From assembly GCF_002854065.1 (NCBI RefSeq), contig NZ_CP024147.1: 64,000 nt of DNA. One strand, written 5' to 3'. Below are positions 28,383-43,811 of the stretch, piece by piece. The DNA is from Escherichia coli (lineage in GTDB: Bacteria > Pseudomonadota > Gammaproteobacteria > Enterobacterales > Enterobacteriaceae). Under the pieces are notes generated by a model, which saw only the letters and a program-made list of their open reading frames with translations, had not been told where the DNA came from and searched no databases. Both the position numbers and the translations under genes were made by a program. Each line of letters opens with the position of its first letter. Position 1 is the first letter of the stretch.

Positions 28383-28459
28383 GGAGCGGTAGTTCAGTCG
28401 GTTAGAATACCTGCCTGTCACGCAGGGGGTCGCGGGTTCGAGTCCCGTCCGTTCCGCCA
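28383..28459 (+). tRNA. aspV: tRNA-Asp (GTC); integration site of the downstream island
   Basis: Identical 77-nt sequence to aspU at 20158-20234. Confidence 0.97.
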
Positions 28460-30676: not shown

Positions 30677-32523
30677 GTCATAATTTTACCGCGCTGCATG
30701 CTGTGCAGCGTCATCTGCGAGAAGGTATTAATGGAAACATGGCGGGCGATATAGTGTTCCAGCACCAGGCCGAACAGATACGGACTGATGCCGGAAAAAC
30801 CTTCTTCATCCACCGTCAGTTCACAACTGACGCCACGCCCATAGACCAGTAGTCCGGAACCGGGCAGACGGCGGGTGACCGGGGTCGTTTTACAACCAAT
30901 CAGGCTGCGCACCTGGCGCGATTGCGGACTGTCATGAGCAGGAATAAACAGGTTCAGCAGATCTCGCAACGCCTGGCCGCCGGTACGGTGATCCAGATCG
31001 GCCAGCGGCAGATAATTAAAAGATAACTGGCGGATCAACCGCCATGCCATCTCACGTTCAGCCAGCGGGGGCTGCGGCGAGCGTGGCGGGCGGATAAGCC
31101 CTACGCCCGCCACCGGGATGGCCGCATCCACGGTTAGATCGTCCCGGCCATTGCGGGCAATAAGACAGGGCAGATCGCGGTTAGTGACCATGGCCGTGAT
31201 GGTGATGTGGCGCAGATTTTCCGGGTACGGCGCTTCATACTGGTCAACCAGCGACAGGAACACTTCCGAGCCCGTATAGGGGGTACGGGTGCCGTAACGG
31301 CGGGCGTTTTCTGATAAGCGGCGGGGCTCCCGGCGCAGGGAAAAATAACGTCCGTGATTGCCTTCATCATTATTGCGGGTGTGGTAGAGCGGGCGAAAGG
31401 CCATCTTCCGTGTGGTGTCGGTTTCCAGCCCTTCCACTTCCTGGACCGAGAACACCTCATAATCCAGCGGATGGGTTCTGTCCACCACCAGATGCTGTTC
31501 CGTCGTGCTGTGCGTGACATCGATCCGGGCGGTGACGCGGGGAAACAGGTTGATAACCGGGGTACAGAACAGGCTGAACTGTGCCGCATTTGTCTGGTGG
31601 ATCAGCCAGTCCGGCGGCAGGCGGTTCAGCAGGATAACAATCTCCGCCACGCCACCGTCAATTTTCTGTAATCCGGCAGACAGGCCTGTCGGGGTGAAAA
31701 AATAGAAGCGTTCCGGACAGGCAAAATATTCATGCAGCAGGTTATGACCGTGAAACACGTTCCACGCCAGCGGCAGCAGCCCCTGATCCGGCTCCAGGCC
31801 TTCGTACATAACGGGCTGTTGCAGATTCACATCCAGCGCGCCGTCAAAATGTCCCGGAATGCCAGCCAGGGTCGCGATGGCGCTGGTATGTAGAAGTTCT
31901 AACATGTGTGAGGCCGTACGCTCCTCGCCGCAGAGATAAAACGGCAGCCTATCCAGTCCTGCAAGCTGACTGAATGTTAGTTCACCAAAGGTGCGCAGGG
32001 TAATACGCAGCGCCCCGGCGACGTGAATGTTGGCCGGCAGGTAGCGGTGCAGGGCAGGCATATCCGGTGGCGCGGCGGTCAGTCGCGCCTCTTCGATGGC
32101 GAGCGGCCACAGCGTTACATCCTGGCTGCTGCGAAACTGGCAGGCAGTGCTTTCGCCTTCCGGAATGGCGGAGAAAAAGGCCGTGTCGCGCGGGACGGTA
32201 AATCCTTTCGCCAGATCGCCTTCTTCCGTATCGGGATGCAACTGCGCCACGCTCATTGAGGGCGTGGGTGTGACGTAATTGGGGCTGACCACTTCCAGCA
32301 GGCGCTGGGTGAAACGGGGGAATTCAGCGTCAATTTTTAGCTGCGTGCGGGCGGTCAGGAAGCTGAAGGCCTCGACCATTCGCTCTACATACGGATCGGC
32401 AATATCCGTTCCCTGCATGCCCAGCCGGGCGGCGACTTTGGGATGACGGGCGGCAAATTCGGCTCCCGTTTCCCGCAGATAGCTCAGTTCGCGGTTGTAG
32501 TATTCCAGTAGCCGTGGATCCAT
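30640..32523 (-). CDS. tssF: T6SS baseplate protein TssF
   Basis: 627-aa ORF; N-terminus MDPRLLEYYNRELSYLRETGAEFAARHPKVAARLG… is typical of TssF. Confidence 0.75.
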   Translation of the reverse strand: MDPRLLEYYNRELSYLRETGAEFAARHPKVAARLGMQGTDIADPYVERMVEAFSFLTARTQLKIDAEFPRFTQRLLEVVSPNYVTPTPSMSVAQLHPDTEEGDLAKGFTVPRDTAFFSAIPEGESTACQFRSSQDVTLWPLAIEEARLTAAPPDMPALHRYLPANIHVAGALRITLRTFGELTFSQLAGLDRLPFYLCGEERTASHMLELLHTSAIATLAGIPGHFDGALDVNLQQPVMYEGLEPDQGLLPLAWNVFHGHNLLHEYFACPERFYFFTPTGLSAGLQKIDGGVAEIVILLNRLPPDWLIHQTNAAQFSLFCTPVINLFPRVTARIDVTHSTTEQHLVVDRTHPLDYEVFSVQEVEGLETDTTRKMAFRPLYHTRNNDEGNHGRYFSLRREPRRLSENARRYGTRTPYTGSEVFLSLVDQYEAPYPENLRHITITAMVTNRDLPCLIARNGRDDLTVDAAIPVAGVGLIRPPRSPQPPLAEREMAWRLIRQLSFNYLPLADLDHRTGGQALRDLLNLFIPAHDSPQSRQVRSLIGCKTTPVTRRLPGSGLLVYGRGVSCELTVDEEGFSGISPYLFGLVLEHYIARHVSINTFSQMTLHSMQRGKIMTWPVRAGQRGSV

Positions 32524-33033: not shown

Positions 33034-33860
33034 GCGTCGCTTCCTTCAGCGGTGTTAAAGGTACAGGTGGACAAATCCAGCAGGCTGATATCGCCGTGAC
33101 CGGTGAGCCACACCCTCTGACCCAGCGCCTGTACCAGTGTCTCTCCCGGACCGTCCTGCCAGACTGTTTCCCGGCACAGACGCAGGGAGTCGGCAGCCTT
33201 TTCAGAGCCGCTGTAGCGGGGAAACAGCTAGGCACTGTGTGTATCGCCATTGTTCAGGGTGACGTTGACGGGTTTCCAGATCAAATCGATCAGATGCGCA
33301 GGCTGCGGCGATTTCAGCGAACAGATTTGTGAAAACGGCAGCCAGATATATGCTCCGCCCGCGATCAGTTCGAGTACCGGACCGGTACGGGAGTCGCTGT
33401 CGCTAATCCAGTCAAATGCGCCGCCATTCCACTGCCCGGAAGTGTCTGTTATGGCCTCAAGCGCGCGGCTGCGGTGGGTGTCAGCTTCCTGCGCTTCACC
33501 ACGGGCGTTACAGGCGAGGGCGGTCAGCAGATCCTCCATCCAGGCGGGCGGCGGGAGAATAACACCGGGTCGCTGTTCGCCCTGAAAGCAGACGTGGCGG
33601 TATATCTCACAGCGGATCAGCTCGCCAAATACCTGCGCTTCGCGGGTATAATTTGCGTCCATCCGGGCGCATAGCTGGATCTGTTGCAGTGCCCGCGACC
33701 AGTCGCCTGCCACGCAAAATAACTGAAACAGGCTGTGGCGGCTGGAGGCCTGCGCTGGGTGCATCCTGACCTGCAGCTCTGCCATCTGAATGCCCTCCGC
33801 CAGGGAATAATCCCGCAGCAGTGCCGACAAGGTAGTCGGTAGCTTGTTAATGTTTGTCAT
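33030..33860 (-). pseudogene. tagJ: T6SS accessory protein TagJ/ImpE (SciE)-like, interrupted by an in-frame amber codon at 33228-33230
   Basis: 210-aa ORF stops at TAG; the same frame continues about 65 codons to a TGA that overlaps the tssE start, giving about 275 aa in total. Confidence 0.55.
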
Positions 33861-34761
33861 GAGATATCTCTCCGTGTTGTGCCGGGTTTATCCGGTAATG
33901 GCTGTCAATGCCAATGATGCGATGCTCTTTCCGTGTCAGATCGGGCAGTACGGTGCTATGCGCTGTTTCCGGGGCGTATTCCGGGGAAAGTAAATGCAGG
34001 ATATCAGGGGGAGTCTTTTCGACAGGCCAGGCTGTTTCACCTTCGCCGGTGGCATCCAGTACATTGAGAATAGCGTCAATGCTTAACCCGCCAGTGACCA
34101 TATCCTGCAATGTCTCGGCTTCGGTGACCAGGTCACGCAATGAATCCAGATCCTGCGAGGTGGGCTCTTCGTTAAAGGGAAAAGGATCAGCATGGCGATG
34201 AAGATCTTGTTCGGGAGATAACAACGCCTCGCGGTATTCCTGATAAAGTCGGGTCAGGGCATTCCCTTTTTCCGCACCTTCTCCGGTGGAGGAGGCTCCA
34301 TGAACAGGAATGATATCGAATGGATTTTGTGATGTCAGATGCTGCTGCCTGAACCAATCCAGATCCAGATATTCGGTTATTGCTTCCGACGTGATGGCAG
34401 TCTGCGATATCGTTTTTACTGCGCTCAGGTCCGGAGATGATGGATTGCCATGTACAAGGCACCATGAAGATAACCCCCATTCTATCAGGTCGCCTTCATT
34501 CAGACGCATACGGTGATGAGGTTCCACAATCTGGTCGTTTACCGTACAGCAATATTCGGTAGACTGATTGATAATCCACCATGCTTCTTCGTGGCGGGTC
34601 AGAGTGAGGGCAATCTTTACATCATCATTCACCTTAAAAACAGGAATCCAGGGAGAGGTAACGGTGAAGATAATTTGTGTTCCTTCAGTCGCGTAAATTG
34701 TGTTATCGGCGATCCCGTGCGCCTGTATTTTTTGGAGTCCCCACGTAATATTTGGTTTCAT
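33847..34761 (-). CDS. tagH: T6SS-associated FHA-domain protein (TagH/Fha-like)
   Basis: 304-aa ORF; N-terminal region fits an FHA-like pattern (…WWIINQSTEYCCTVNDQIV…LNEGDLIEWG…); first gene of the minus-strand T6SS block. Confidence 0.5.
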   Translation of the reverse strand: MKPNITWGLQKIQAHGIADNTIYATEGTQIIFTVTSPWIPVFKVNDDVKIALTLTRHEEAWWIINQSTEYCCTVNDQIVEPHHRMRLNEGDLIEWGLSSWCLVHGNPSSPDLSAVKTISQTAITSEAITEYLDLDWFRQQHLTSQNPFDIIPVHGASSTGEGAEKGNALTRLYQEYREALLSPEQDLHRHADPFPFNEEPTSQDLDSLRDLVTEAETLQDMVTGGLSIDAILNVLDATGEGETAWPVEKTPPDILHLLSPEYAPETAHSTVLPDLTRKEHRIIGIDSHYRINPAQHGEISHDKH

Positions 34762-35208
34762 TGTGTATCACTGTGTAGAGTGTTTCTTTCAAAAGAATAA
34801 GTTTTCTAAATTTTTAGATAAGCAATGCTGATCAATTTACTTTATCAATATAAGTTTTCGCGGAAATATATAGTGGTGATTTTTAATTTAATATATTCAT
34901 GGTGTGTATGAAATTGACTTGCTCTATTGAATATCACCATGAAAAAGATACTACCTGCTATATTACATAGTGTTCTGTGATATGCATCATTGTTTCATTC
35001 TGCCTTTTTGATAATTCTATTAATTAGAAGTTTTAATCGGTACAGTTATGTTTATGTATCATTTATATGTTATTACATCATTAGGTGTAACAGATGGACA
35101 CTCCTGTTTCGCGCAGTGCACTATATGGAAAGCTAACCAAATCTTTGTTTAGATCTTTGGAATCTGCGACAACGTTCTGTAAATTACGTGCTAACCCTTA
35201 TGTCGAAC
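34762..35208. promoter_or_regulatory. AT-rich intergenic region upstream of the minus-strand T6SS operon (former divergent promoter region)
   Basis: About 450 bp of strongly AT-rich non-coding sequence between tagH start and IS2. Confidence 0.45.
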
Positions 35209-35219
35209 TGGATTTGCCC

Positions 35220-36125
35220 CTATATTTCCAGACATCTGTTATCACTTAACCCATTACAAGCCCGCTGCCGCAGATATTCCCGTGGCGAGCGATAACCCAG
35301 CGCACTATGCGGATGCCATTCGTTATAATGCTCGAACGCCTCTGCAAGGTTCTTTGCTGCCGTTAACCCGTCTGGTTTGGGCATGATACTGATGTAGTCA
35401 CGCTTTATCGTTTTCACGAAGCTCTCTGCTATTCCGTTACTCTCCGGACTCCGCACCGCCGTGTTCTTCGGTTCAAGTCCCAACATCCGGGCGAACTGGC
35501 GTGTTTCATTAGCCCGGTAGCATGAACCATTATCCGTCAGCCACTCCACTGGAGACGACGGAAGATCGTTGCCGAAGCGGCGTTCCACCGCTCCCAGCAT
35601 GACGTCCTGTACTGTTTCACTGTTGAAGCCGCCGGTAGTGACCGCCCAGTGCAGTGCCTCACGATCACAGCAGTCCAGCGCGAACGTGACACGCAGTCTC
35701 TCTCCGTTATCACAGCAGAACTCGAACCCGTCAGAGCACCATCGCTGATTGCTTTCTTTCACGGCCACTCTGCCTGTATGTGCCCGTTTCGATGGCGGTA
35801 CAGCAGGTTTTCGCTCAAGCAACAGCGCATTCTGGCGCATGATCCGGTAAACACGTTTGGCATTGATCGCAGGCATACCATCAAGTTCTGCCTGTCTGCG
35901 AAGCAGCGCCCATACCCGACGATAACCATACGTGGGCAGCTCTCCGATAACATGGTGTATACGGAGAAGCACATCCGTATCATCAGTGTGACGACTGCGG
36001 CGGCCATCCATCCAGTCATCGGTTCGTCTGAGAATGACGTGCAACTGCGCACGCGACACCCGGAGACAACGGCTGACTAAGCTTACTCCCCATCCCCGGG
36101 CAATAAGGGCGCGTGCGCTATCCAC
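35220..36125 (-). CDS. insD: IS2 transposase OrfB (InsD)
   Basis: 301-aa DDE transposase ORF inside IS2. Confidence 0.92.
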
Positions 36126-36448
36126 TTTTTTGCCCGTCCATATTCAACGGCTTCTTTGAGGAGTTCATTTTCCATCGTTTTCTTGCCGAGCAGGCGCTGG
36201 AGTTCTTTAATCTGCTTCATGGCGGCAGCAAGTTCAGAGGCAGGAACAACCTGTTCTCCGGCGGCGACAGCAGTAAGACTTCCTTCCTGGTATTGCTTAC
36301 GCCAGAGAAATAACTGGCTGGCTGCTACACCATGTTGCCGGGCAACGAGGGAGACCGTCATCCCCGGTTCAAAGCTCTGCTGAACAATTGCGATCTTTTC
36401 CTGTGTGGTACGCCGTCTGCGTTTCTCCGGCCCTAAGACATCAATCAT
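36083..36448 (-). CDS. insC: IS2 OrfA (InsC) HTH regulator
   Basis: [25 protein letters not shown]… inside IS2. Confidence 0.9.
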
Positions 36449-36539
36449 CTGTTCTCCAATGACTAGTCTAAAAACTAGTATTAAGACTATCACTTATTTA
36501 AGTGATATTGGTTGTCTGGAGATTCAGGGGGCCAGTCTA

Positions 36540-39390
36540 CGAACTGACGCATTGGTTGCATCAGTTAATACAACAACCAGAGAATGACATTCACAATGTG
36601 CTTCGACATTATCAAATAACATCTGCTGATGTTGAGAAGGCGTTAATTCAGCAATTGAATATATTGCCTGCCGGAGCGAGTGTAATTAACGATTTTTCCC
36701 ATCATATCGATCTTTCTGTTGAAAAAGCCTGGATGTTGGCAAGTATCCGCTTTGGCGATCAAAAAATTCGTAGTGGATGGTTATTACTTGCCTGGTTAAC
36801 CACGCCAGAATTGTGTCGGGTGTTAAAAAATATTTGTGCGCCATTGGCAGAGCTACCGGTAGATGAACTATTAGATATTCTTCCGTCTTTAATCACTTCA
36901 TCTCCTGAATTAACAGAAATGCCTTATGACGGCTCGGATTTAAATTCTGCAGTACCGGGGGAAGCTAGCCAGGTCTTTGCCGGCGAATCAACTGGAAGCA
37001 AATCCGCGCTGGCGAAATACTGTCAGGACATGACTGCGCTGGCCCGTGAAGGCAATATCGATCCGGTCACCGGTCGCGAACACGAGATCCGTACTATGAC
37101 GGATATTCTGCTGCGCCGTCGCCAGAACAACCCGCTACTGACCGGCGAAGCGGGAGTCGGGAAAACGGCAGTGGTGGAAGGATTCGCGCTGGCGATTGCC
37201 GGGGGGGAAGTACCGCCTTCACTGCGTAACGTGCGGTTGCTTTCACTGGATGTTGGCGCGCTGCTGGCTGGGGCGTCCATGAAGGGTGAGTTTGAATCTC
37301 GCCTGAAAGCGTTGCTGGAAGAGGCCGCGCACTCGCCGCAGCCGGTAATCCTTTTTGTTGATGAAGTTCACACGCTGGTGGGCGCTGGTGGGCGCTGGTG
37401 GTACATCCGGCACCGTCGCATCACGGGCAGTGTGCAGTCCTGGCAGTATACGCCGCGCGGGCTGCTGGCGCTCCATACGGATGAAGAGAAACGGGAGACG
37501 CGCTGGCAGTACACCCCGGAAGGGCTGGTTGCCAGTCTGAGCAACGGCAATGGGGCTCAGTACCGGTTCAGCTACGACGGCGACGGACGGCTGACGGGAG
37601 AACAGCGCCCGGACGGTCTGATACGGATGTTTGCGCTGAATGCGGGCGGGTTCCCGGTCATCATCCAGACGCAGGGCACAGAAGGAGGGATGCGTAATGA
37701 GCGACAGGAGCGTGATGCGCTGGGCCGCCTGCTGCGCAGTGACACGCAGCACAGTACACGGACCTTCAGCTACAACCGTCTTGACCAGATAACGGAAGTG
37801 ACGCTCACCCCCACGGAAGAAGGGGAACGGCTGCACCACATGCAGGCGGACAGGGTGCGCTTTGCGTATGACCGCAGCGGCTGGCTGACGGCAGAGCACA
37901 GCGTGCACGGCAGCATAAAGTACCGGCGCGATGCGCTGGGCAATCCCACCGATATCACCTTACCGGACGGGCAGCATCTCAGCCATCTTTACTACGGCAG
38001 CGGGCATCTGCTCCAGACGGCACTGGACGGTATCACGGTCAGCGAATATGAGCGTGACAGTCTGCACCGTCAGGTGATACGCACGCAGGGGAAACTGGCG
38101 ACGTTCAGCGGCTACAACGCCGACAACCGGTTAAGCTGGCAGCGCAGCCTGCCAGGTGGCAGCCAGAATCCACAGCAGGCCGGTACTCCCCCGGCGCAGA
38201 ACGACAGCGTGACGGCGCGGGACTATATCTGGAACGCAGACGGTGAAGTCGGCGGCATCAATGACAAACTGCGCGGTTGCCTGGTGTTCAGCTATGACCG
38301 CAGCGGCTGGCTGACCAGCCGCACGGGGCAGATGTATGACCATGACCATTATTATTACGATAAAGCGGGCAACCTGCTGACGGATGAGTATCAGGGAGCG
38401 GTGCTGGACAACCGCCTGCCGGGCTACGGGCGTGACCGTTACCGCTATAACGAATGGGGCGAACTGACAGAGCGCAGGGACCAGCAGCTGGAGTGGAACG
38501 CGCAGGGCCAGTTAACGCGGGTCATCAGCAGCAACAGCGAGACGCGGTATCAGTACGATGCGCTGGGCAGGCGCATCATCAAGGCGACCAGCAATCTCCA
38601 TACCGACCGGGGAGAACGAAGCCGGACAACGTTTGTGTGGGAAGGGTTCCGGCTGTTGCAGGAGACAACGTGGCAGGGAAAGCGGACATACCTGTACGAC
38701 GCGGAACAGCCGTACACGCCGGTGGCGGCCATCACCGGGCGCGGAGAGAGTCAAAAAATCTGGTATTACCATACGGACCTGACGGGCACGGTACAGGAGG
38801 TGACCGCGCCGGACGGGACGCTGGTGTGGGCGGGCTACCAGGCGGGATTTGGTGAAAACCGGGGCGACATCAGCAACAGCGGGGCGTACTTTGAACAGCC
38901 GCTGCGGCTGCCGGGGCAGTATTATGATGAAGAGACGGGGCTGCACTATAATCTGTTCAGATATTATGCGCCGGAGTGCGGGAGGTTCATAAGTCAGGAT
39001 CCGATAGGGCTGGCGGGTGGAATAAACCTCTATGCTTATGCTCCTAACCCAATTAGCTGGATCGATCCCTTTGGACTGGATTTACACCATATAATACAGC
39101 AAGAAATTTGGAAGGAGTTCAAAACAGATCTTAAAAAAGTCACCGGATATGTACAAAATGTCACGAAAAAGGCAGCCGACATGACAAACCTAATCGATCT
39201 GGATAAACCTTTTCATGGTAATCACCCAGCTTATAGTCAATATGTAAGAGAAGCAATCGAAGACCTGAAGGCTAATAATAACTTAACGTTGAAAGGATTA
39301 AGAGATTTACAAGATGATCTTAAAAAGAAAATAGGTGAAGCTCAAAAGTCTGGCAAAAATCTAAATGATTATTTTAAATCGGGGTGCTGA
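36540..39390 (+). CDS. chimeric ORF: 5'-truncated ClpV/TssH N-domain and AAA+ D1 Walker A region fused in frame to an Rhs YD-repeat core with a C-terminal toxin domain
   Basis: Residues …[13 protein letters not shown]…[13 protein letters not shown] are ClpV-like, then YD-repeat sequence (…[13 protein letters not shown]…), then the DPFGL junction and a roughly 110-aa C-terminal tip; no native start codon, as the track start lies inside the IS2 inverted repeat. Confidence 0.75.
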
Positions 39391-39845
39391 TTATGAGATA
39401 CAAAAAGGTAACTGTTTCTTATGAGCCTGCAATCACAGGAAATAGTAAAGGAGGGTATTCAGTAGAAATAAAAGATAGACTCTCTTTTAATAGTCCTACG
39501 GAGAGAAAATACTTTGAGTCTTTTTTTGAAAATAATGATGAAAACTATAATAGAGTTTTTATCAATAATTTTGAAACTATTGATACAGTTTATCTAAAAA
39601 ATTTAATTTTATTTCCAAAACAAAAAAGGATAAAGGAAATTGATATGCTAATATTTTCCCCGCACAAACTCGGACTTAGTTTTATGATATCGGAGAAATT
39701 ATATAATATTATAACTAAATTTAAACTTCCTCCGTTCAATAAGATACCAGCTCAAATCAATACATTCAATACGAAGTATTTTTTGATCGGTTTCCCAATG
39801 ATACCAAAAGAAAGAATTGATTTAGATAAATCTATATTTTTTTGA
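39384..39845 (+). CDS. putative Rhs immunity protein (cognate to the toxin tip at 39060-39390)
   Basis: 153-aa AT-rich ORF whose ATG overlaps the rhs stop (ATGA); typical toxin/immunity arrangement. Confidence 0.6.
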
Positions 39846-41038: not shown

Positions 41039-41322
41039 GTCGGAACGTAATAATCTCGGTGAATATTGGTTTTTATTCTCCCGGATCTCCGCCAGTACTA
41101 ACAGGCGAAAATCCGGGAGGACTGATATTACGGCTGGATAATATCGTCAATAAACACCACACCATCAGTAGTACGCAACCAGCGCGGCGCTTTCAGTTTT
41201 GCCGCAAAGAACCAGATCAGTTCACAAAGCAGCCCCGTCAGGGGTTGTTCCATTTTAGATCCCTGCGCCTGTTCCGTCAGGATCTGGAGTAATACCTCGC
41301 AATATTCACACAATTGTAGTGG

Positions 41323-42735
<1,413 letters not shown>

Positions 42736-42973: not shown

Positions 42974-43811
42974 CTGGCAGGGAAAGCGGACATACCTGTA
43001 CGACGCGGAACAGCCGTACACGCCGGTGGCGGCCATCACGGGGCGCGGAGAGAGCCAGAAAATCTGGTATTACCACACGGACCTGACGGGCACGGTACAC
43101 GAGGTAACCGCGCCGGACGGGACGCTGGTGTGGGCGGGCTACCAGGCGGGATTTGGTGAAAACCGGGGCGACATCAGCAACAGCGGGGCGTACTTTGAGC
43201 AGCCGCTGCGGCTGCCGGGGCAGTATTATGATGAAGATACGGGGCTGCACTATAATCTGTTCAGATATTATGCGCCGGAGTGCGGGCGGTTTATCAGTCA
43301 GGACCCGATAGGGCTGGCGGGAGGAATAAACCTATATGCTTATGCGCCTAATCCGCTAAGTTATATTGATCCTCTTGGGCTTTGTAAATTAAGGGGAAGC
43401 GATGGGCGCTACAGAAGTGCACAGAATATTCAGGAAGAAATAGGCGGCCTACCCAATTTTGCAGGAAAAACTCCAGGAGAAATACGACAAACTTTGCGTA
43501 ATCGAGGTTATTCGTCGGTACAAGCGTATAGTGGAGGAGAGGTCTGGACAAAAGCATTACCTGACGGAAATACTGTTGCAGTGAGGCTTGATCCGGCAAA
43601 TCCTCGCTCACCTTCACATTATGCTGATGCTGTACCTCATGCTCATATTGAAACAGTTCCAACATCCAGTGTTTCTAATGGGAATTATCGCCCGCGAGAC
43701 GTGACTGGCAGGCATACTGCCACTGGTGGGGTTTCTGATCGAGGAACAAATCCGAATCATAACGCTGATGTTTACATTCCAATGTCTCCGGGACGATTCC
43801 CATATGATTAA
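42974..43811 (+). CDS. orphan Rhs C-terminal fragment (conserved core end plus alternative toxin tip); no upstream rhs body
   Basis: About 400 bp that are nearly identical to 38672-39070 by eye (core end through the DPxGL junction), followed by a different roughly 140-aa C-terminal domain. Confidence 0.7.

Follow-up and report, generated by a model that had tools for sequence, protein, structure and literature searches.

IS2 in codon 39 of a tssH remnant fused to rhs, within a decayed type VI secretion island of Escherichia coli

In a 64,000-nucleotide stretch of Escherichia coli contig NZ_CP024147.1 (hereafter the window), a complete copy of the insertion sequence IS2 lies at positions 35209-36539, inside what remains of tssH (clpV), a gene of a type VI secretion system (T6SS). 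We consider it very probable that a canonical IS2, moving by ordinary transposition, entered codon 39 of a tssH that a deletion had already truncated and fused to rhs, as a late step in the decay of a dead T6SS island. A deletion of about 24 kb would have fused tssH, cut near codon 323, with rhs, cut near its middle; tandem duplication of 10 bp would then have brought both remnants into one reading frame, that of a 986-aa TssH'-Rhs' chimera. Copy-out/paste-in transposition would next have carried IS2 into nucleotides 111-115 of tssH (codon 39), by then a pseudogene, and left the chimera in two parts, a stub of 38 codons and a remainder without a promoter. The insertion itself was probably a near-neutral event in an island that no longer functioned. 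The locus is an insertion in a pseudogene of a decayed T6SS island and departs in no respect from known biology; the only mildly unusual points are the position of deletion endpoints next to Chi and the duplication that restored the frame.

The IS2 element and its position in tssH

The element spans 1331 bp on the minus strand, with the end of its right inverted repeat (IRR) at 35209 and that of its left inverted repeat (IRL) at 36539. It starts with TGGATTTGCCCC (IRR) and finishes with GGGGGCCAGTCTA (IRL); the ends are also read as TGGATTTGCCCCTATATTTCCAGAC for the first bases and ...CTGGAGATTCAGGGGGCCAGTCTA for the last. Across all 1331 bp it shows 100% nucleotide identity to many RefSeq copies annotated 'IS3-like element IS2', and the window holds no other copy of IS2. 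The IRR (41 bp; 35209-35249, minus strand), which is the left end here, has the tip TGG and carries an outward -35 hexamer; the IRL (42 bp; 36498-36539, minus strand) points its tip TAGACT toward the tssH'-rhs' remnant, and the two imperfect repeats align as described for IS2 (PMC3299598). The two-gene layout of this IS3-family element is likewise intact. The open reading frames (ORFs) orfA (insC; 121 aa; 36083-36448) and orfB (insD; 301 aa; 35220-36125), both on the minus strand, overlap, with an A6G motif for -1 frameshifting at 36125-36131 on the same strand (IS2 position 409), and they encode a DDE/rve transposase. The orfB product matches the NCBIfam model NF006918, 'IS2 transposase TnpB', over residues 1-301 of 301 (727.6 bits). 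The identification as IS2 holds on each defining feature tested, and the completeness of the element, which an earlier note on this DNA had asserted, is borne out.

The pentamer CGAAC stands on both sides of IS2, at 35204-35208 (nucleotides 111-115 of tssH) and at 36540-36544; five flanking bases would match by chance in 1 case out of 1024. The joints read CCCTTATGTCGAAC followed by TGGATTTGCC on the left and GGCCAGTCTA followed by CGAACTGACG on the right. Four related loci that lack IS2 (L001, L002, L003 and L004) have the empty site, with a single CGAAC (...CCCTTATGTCGAACTGACGCATTGG...), and in E. coli genomes with an intact tssH the flanks lie exactly 1336 bp (1331 + 5) nearer each other. 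With two copies of the pentamer at the insertion and one at the empty sites, the 5-bp direct duplication characteristic of IS2 is present, and the simple insertion proposed in the earlier note is confirmed. The IS2/flank joint was also found in two independent assemblies, L006 and L007, and is therefore not an artefact of assembly.

Directly to the left of the element stand the ATG of tssH, its first 38 codons and the first base of codon 39 (35094-35208, plus strand), cut off by IS2: the frame opened by the ATG at 35094, MDTPVSRSALYGKL..., runs for 38 codons until the IS2 end. This start codon agrees with the start of the RefSeq coding sequence in L002, and the RefSeq tssH coding sequence of strain A34 begins 110 nt ahead of CGAAC. 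The AT-rich divergent intergenic region (27-34% GC; 332 bp; 34762-35093), between tagK on the minus strand and tssH on the plus strand, stops 115 nt to the left of IS2. Excision in silico of IS2 and one CGAAC yields an uninterrupted 986-codon ORF (35094-39390), of which residues 1-321 match the corresponding stretch of TssH (ClpV) from E. coli A34, an 877-aa protein, with 100% identity. IS2 interrupts codon 39 of tssH, inside the coding sequence. The earlier note had supposed that removal of IS2 would run intergenic DNA directly into the middle of clpV, and had placed the element at the junction of the divergent promoter region and a clpV fragment. An intact clpV start is adjacent to the element, so this positional reading fails; the fragment is the 5' third of the gene, and the true junction lies further to the right.

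The deletion junction and the order of events

To the right of IS2 (36540-37410, plus strand), tssH resumes in codon 39 and reaches approximately codon 323 by native numbering. The remnant as a whole (residues 1 to about 323) retains the N-domain and the part of the D1 module that extends through Walker A and Walker B; the D2 module has been deleted, and the remnant is a pseudogene. Between 37410 and 37411, 871 bp to the right of IS2, the match to tssH stops and the match to the YD repeats of Rhs starts. At the break, intact tssH reads ...GGTGGTACATCCGG followed by TACGGGGGATG and full-length rhs ...TTACTGAGCAGC followed by CACCGTCGCATCAC, while the window passes from ...GGTGGTACATCCGG to CACCGTCGCATCAC, the deletion joint being ACATCCGG against CACCGTCGC. 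The rhs' fragment (37411-39390, plus strand) comprises the C-terminal 660 codons, starting at about nucleotide 2086 of a 4125-nt rhs, and gives Pfam RHS and AHH matches. About 695 N-terminal residues of an Rhs T6SS effector are absent from it, and without that half it does not qualify as a deliverable effector; the YD repeats, the RHS core, the PxxxxDPxGL motif (at 39049) with the AHH-type toxin domain after it, and a downstream ORF of 150 aa have been kept.

Measured against the intact island of PapRG-06-5, the missing DNA amounts to 24,355 bp with the full-length rhs as partner (break at nucleotide 2085 of 4125) and to 28,469 bp with the orphan rhs. The deletion removed the 3' two-thirds of tssH, together with tssB, tssC, tae4/tai4, hcp, tssJ, tssK, tssL, tssM, tagF, vgrG, a gene for a DcrB-like chaperone and the 5' half of rhs. 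Given its intact CGAAC duplication, its distance of 871 bp from the junction and the occurrence of the same deletion in alleles without it, IS2 did not cause the deletion, as the earlier note had also held.

These alleles are few. A megablast search with the junction region, in a set of 5426 complete E. coli genomes, returned no record spanning the deletion junction. IS2 was found at this site in none of the 5426, nor in any of the 117 in which tssH is intact across the deletion site. An exact-match scan for the junction, GGTACATCCGGCACCGTCGCATCAC, had 0 matches among metagenome contigs from JGI and 0 among the species-representative genomes of GTDB. The deletion allele, which is rare, was found through an exact-protein index alone: the 986-aa chimera occurs, exact and without IS2, in the E. 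coli NCTC genome GCA_900449015.1 (STH34264.1, 'chaperone clpB') and in one ENA metagenome contig. In both IS2-free fusion assemblies the sequence to the left and right of the IS2 site follows the window colinearly (99.92-99.98% identity), with a single CGAAC. The allele with IS2 is present in L006 and L007, in both of which the contig breaks off within IS2; GCA_035821435.1 is an assembly from an IS2-bearing isolate. Over 3465 nt L007 and the window are identical, and L006 is colinear with it from within IS2 past the right IS2/flank joint, with one extra T at 39521.

Single-nucleotide differences add direction to this comparison. Position 39378 is A in the alleles with IS2 (window, L006 and L007) and G in the IS2-free alleles and in the outgroup XJ34; a derived T at 31905 is private to the window, and a derived T at 34884 is common to the window and the IS2-free L004. 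Since IS2-free alleles carry the identical deletion and derived substitutions mark the IS2-bearing haplotype, IS2 appears to have come after the deletion. The comparison with IS2-free alleles that the earlier note had recommended thereby upholds its relative dating of the two events. The most parsimonious order, with the deletion and the 10-bp duplication first and IS2 last, is supported by these sequence comparisons. One could envision the opposite order, in which IS2 entered an intact tssH, the deletion and the duplication followed, and the lineages leading to L003 and L004 then lost IS2 through precise excision. Insertions into an intact tssH do occur, as in the tssH::IS1/IS26 allele of BS90R-A, and absolute exclusion of such a history is beyond what sequence alone can provide. 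However, it requires at least one precise excision that took one copy of the duplication as well, a rare event; no intact-cluster genome with IS2 at the site turned up among the complete E. coli genomes searched; and the IS2-bearing haplotype is derived at 39378 and 31905, while the IS2-free L004 shares the derived 34884T with the window. We regard an insertion that preceded the deletion as very improbable.

How the deletion arose is a separate matter, on which its left endpoint may bear. Three tandem 10-bp units (GCTGGTGGGC, GCTGGTGGGC and GCTGGTGGTA; 37374-37403, plus strand) each open with a Chi octamer, and these octamers, at 37374, 37384 and 37394, are the only Chi sites in the island. 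In native tssH there are two Chi octamers, spaced by 10 bp, in the sequence GCTGGTGGGCGCTGGTGG, which codes for LVGAGG in the D1 module. The extra unit, which brings tssH' in frame with rhs' and so creates the 986-aa chimera, is present in the IS2-free L003 and L004 and absent from XJ34. The deletion junction of the window lies 9 nt 3' of the last Chi (37401-37411), and the deleted DNA is on the side from which RecBCD would approach the Chi of tssH. RecBCD must approach Chi from one defined side to recognise it.

Strain XJ34 has a different junction, ...ACATCCGGTA followed by TCCGGTCATC (L001 11256-11270; joint ACATCCGGTATCCGGTCATC), with a GGTA microhomology and 245 nt further into rhs. Its tssH end is 2 nt from that of the window and about 11 nt past Chi. 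Chi occurs at five plus-strand locations in the 27.4 kb of an intact cluster; for a left endpoint placed at random, the chance of lying no more than 12 nt from one of them is about 0.2%. The endpoints of the two alleles suggest that Chi limited resection and that illegitimate joining followed; alternatively, XJ34 could owe its junction to a secondary deletion of a window-type allele. Among tssH pseudogenes we found no third truncation next to Chi, BS90R-A being an IS1/IS26 insertion and 2012C-4221 breaking elsewhere (query position 422), so the idea draws on two alleles only. It is tempting to go further and to suppose that the tandem Chi in tssH halts RecBCD and thereby sets where core deletions end on the left. 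Slippage of 10 bp would then have produced an in-frame chimera under the tssH promoter, and IS2 would have been retained as a silencer of this useless, possibly harmful protein. We put this scheme forward as speculation and think it rather unlikely.

Transcription around the element

Jaurin and Normark (1983) reportedly described a fusion promoter generated by IS2 at ampC. Fusion promoters of IS2 at ampC, acrEF and neo draw on the -35 element of the IRR (PMC9330008). This outward -35 sits in the right end of IS2 and pairs with the IRL tip TAGACT, as Pjunc, across a mandatory 17-bp spacer (PMC3219604, PMC3299598). From the spacer geometry given in those papers (PMC3299598, PMC3219604) we infer the hexamer to be TGGAAA, the reverse complement of 35225-35230, directed toward tagK. 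The outward -35 and the transposase gene both face tagK, so IS2 supplies no promoter toward the Rhs ORFs. Nor does the flank on the tagK side offer a partner: the hexamers at 15-19 bp from the IRR -35 are AGTTCG, GTTCGA, TTCGAC, TCGACA and CGACAT, none of which has the TAnnnT pattern of a -10. A consensus promoter scan of 34600-37000 gave 3 sites, against 4.0 expected by chance, with no promoter-like site at either IS2 end, and a scan around the rhs C-terminal region was at chance level.

These results bear on the proposal, made in the earlier note, that IS2 lies at the joint of the divergent promoter region and a 5'-truncated clpV, where an outward hybrid promoter might drive the Rhs toxin and immunity ORFs. 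The 332 bp to the left of the tssH ATG are indeed AT-rich intergenic DNA, IS2 fusion promoters have the precedents just cited (PMC9330008), and a 962-codon ORF (36502-39390, plus strand), with a GTG start inside the IRL, reads in frame into tssH'-rhs'. But 115 nt of true tssH coding sequence, ATG included, separate the intergenic DNA from IS2, what remains of clpV is its 5' third, the documented outward -35 faces away from rhs and neither IS2 end resembles a promoter. No Shine-Dalgarno sequence was found upstream of the GTG at 36502, and the 962-aa IS2/tssH'/rhs' ORF is a gene-calling artefact, already deposited in public protein collections. Activation of the Rhs ORFs by IS2 is thus not supported, and we judge it extremely doubtful.

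An effect in the opposite direction is also worth considering. Read-through from the transposase promoter, or a fusion promoter at the IRR, might raise transcription of tagK-tagJ-tssE-tssF-tssG-tssA and yield antisense RNA to the 5' stub of tssH. IS2 transcription and the IRR -35 both aim at tagK, with 447 bp to its start codon, and tssE, tssF, tssG and tssA are still intact ORFs. However, the flank lacks a suitably spaced -10, P_IRL is called weak and repressed by OrfA (PMC3299598), tagJ already carries a nonsense codon (see below), and the genes for the sheath, Hcp and the membrane complex are gone, which leaves no obvious selective value. Such activation is, in our opinion, highly unlikely.

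Most likely, IS2 acts on transcription by blocking what comes from the tssH promoter into the chimera (polar effect). In the pathogenicity island SPI-6 of Salmonella, the genes for the Rhs C-terminal toxin (Rhs-CT) and its immunity protein have an internal promoter with a start 89 nt upstream of the PxxxxDPxGL codons (PMC7043789). By analogy, a perfect TATAAT at 38947-38952 (plus strand), in conserved rhs sequence (codons HYNL), is a candidate internal promoter: it ends 7 nt upstream of 38960, which is 89 nt before the PxxxxDPxGL codons of the window. The same motif recurs in the second rhs fragment of the window, at 43248 (TATAAT at 43251-43256). Given the Salmonella promoter and the TATAAT at the equivalent position, expression of the toxin/immunity pair, should there be any, probably comes from a promoter inside rhs, some 2.4 kb downstream of IS2, and is probably independent of anything near the element.

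Several points weigh against our interpretation of a late, near-neutral insertion. The deletion allele is known in five assemblies only, a small though internally consistent sample from which to order events. The source strain lies outside the complete-genome collection searched, so that the order was drawn up without a whole-genome phylogeny. At the IRL end, a promoter that is weak or does not use sigma-70 could have escaped the consensus scan, which is a crude one, and both the polarity of IS2 and the activity of the internal rhs promoter rest on inference.

The retained island and its relatives

The island lies at the tRNA-Asp gene aspV (28383-28459), between dnaQ and yafV, and has kept tssA, tssG, tssF and tssE as intact ORFs. 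Also kept is tagK (33847-34761, minus strand; NF033418, 551.8 bits), the first gene of the retained tagK-tagJ-tssE-tssF-tssG-tssA operon and the one toward which the IRR and the IS2 transposase gene are oriented. In tagJ, a nonsense codon (W211*) at 33228-33230 on the minus strand interrupts what is a 276-aa TagJ in XJ34. The resulting 210-aa ORF is common to the window and the IS2-free contig L004 and is a further sign of decay among the retained T6SS genes. ARAGORN called a 94-nt 'tRNA-His' at 30764-30857 (minus strand), within the coding sequence of tssF, which is probably a false positive.

On the other side of the deletion, the 150-aa ORF at 39393-39845 (plus strand) starts 3 nt past the rhs' stop codon and is a candidate for the cognate immunity gene; a protein-family search with it gave no family match. 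A run of seven T in this ORF (39514-39520) is a run of eight in L003, without IS2, and in L006, with IS2, and the ORF is frameshifted there. The variation has no link to IS2 status and is due either to slippage on more than one occasion or to errors in sequencing. Among the orphan rhs fragments stands another insertion sequence (41315-42572), a 1258-bp member of the IS3 family whose transposase is encoded on the minus strand. The IS2-free L003 has it too, and so it either predates the IS2 insertion or is independent of it.

For annotation, the locus is best read as tssH'::IS2 inside a tssH'-rhs' deletion chimera. Gene callers give instead a 962-aa ORF that begins in the IS2 inverted repeat or, for the IS2-free form, a 'chaperone ClpB'. 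In this lineage steps of T6SS decay can be put in order, from deletion to 10-bp duplication to IS2, with tagJ W211* and the IS3 element present besides; the endpoint next to Chi offers a small, testable hint as to how such islands lose their core genes.

Compared with the reference IS2 of E. coli, the element has the same length, inverted repeats, orfA/orfB arrangement, A6G motif and 5-bp duplication, with 100% nucleotide identity. The element itself shows no difference; only its insertion site, codon 39 of tssH, is particular. The fusion promoters at ampC, acrEF and neo involve the same element and the same outward -35 in the IRR. Here, however, the IRR faces away from the genes proposed as activated, the flank has no -10 at 16-18 bp, and the insertion is within a coding sequence rather than between a gene and its promoter. 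The closest parallel as a disrupted gene is tssH::IS1/IS26 of E. coli BS90R-A, in which an IS also interrupts tssH of the same island type. That case concerns another IS at another site (about nucleotide 1580), in a cluster the rest of which was kept, whereas in the window IS2 struck a gene that was probably already a deletion remnant.

The island as a whole resembles the SPI-6-like T6SS islands at aspV, those of Salmonella Typhimurium SPI-6 and of E. coli A34 and PapRG-06-5. It occupies the same site between dnaQ-aspV and yafV, with the same divergent tagK...tssA and tssH...tssM operons and the same distal Rhs array of main and orphan modules; Tae4/Tai4 is a feature of the intact relatives. 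In contrast to these, the window is left with tssA, tssG, tssF, tssE, tagJ (W211*), tagK, one third of tssH and C-terminal fragments of rhs, all genes for the sheath, tube, spike and membrane complex having been deleted.

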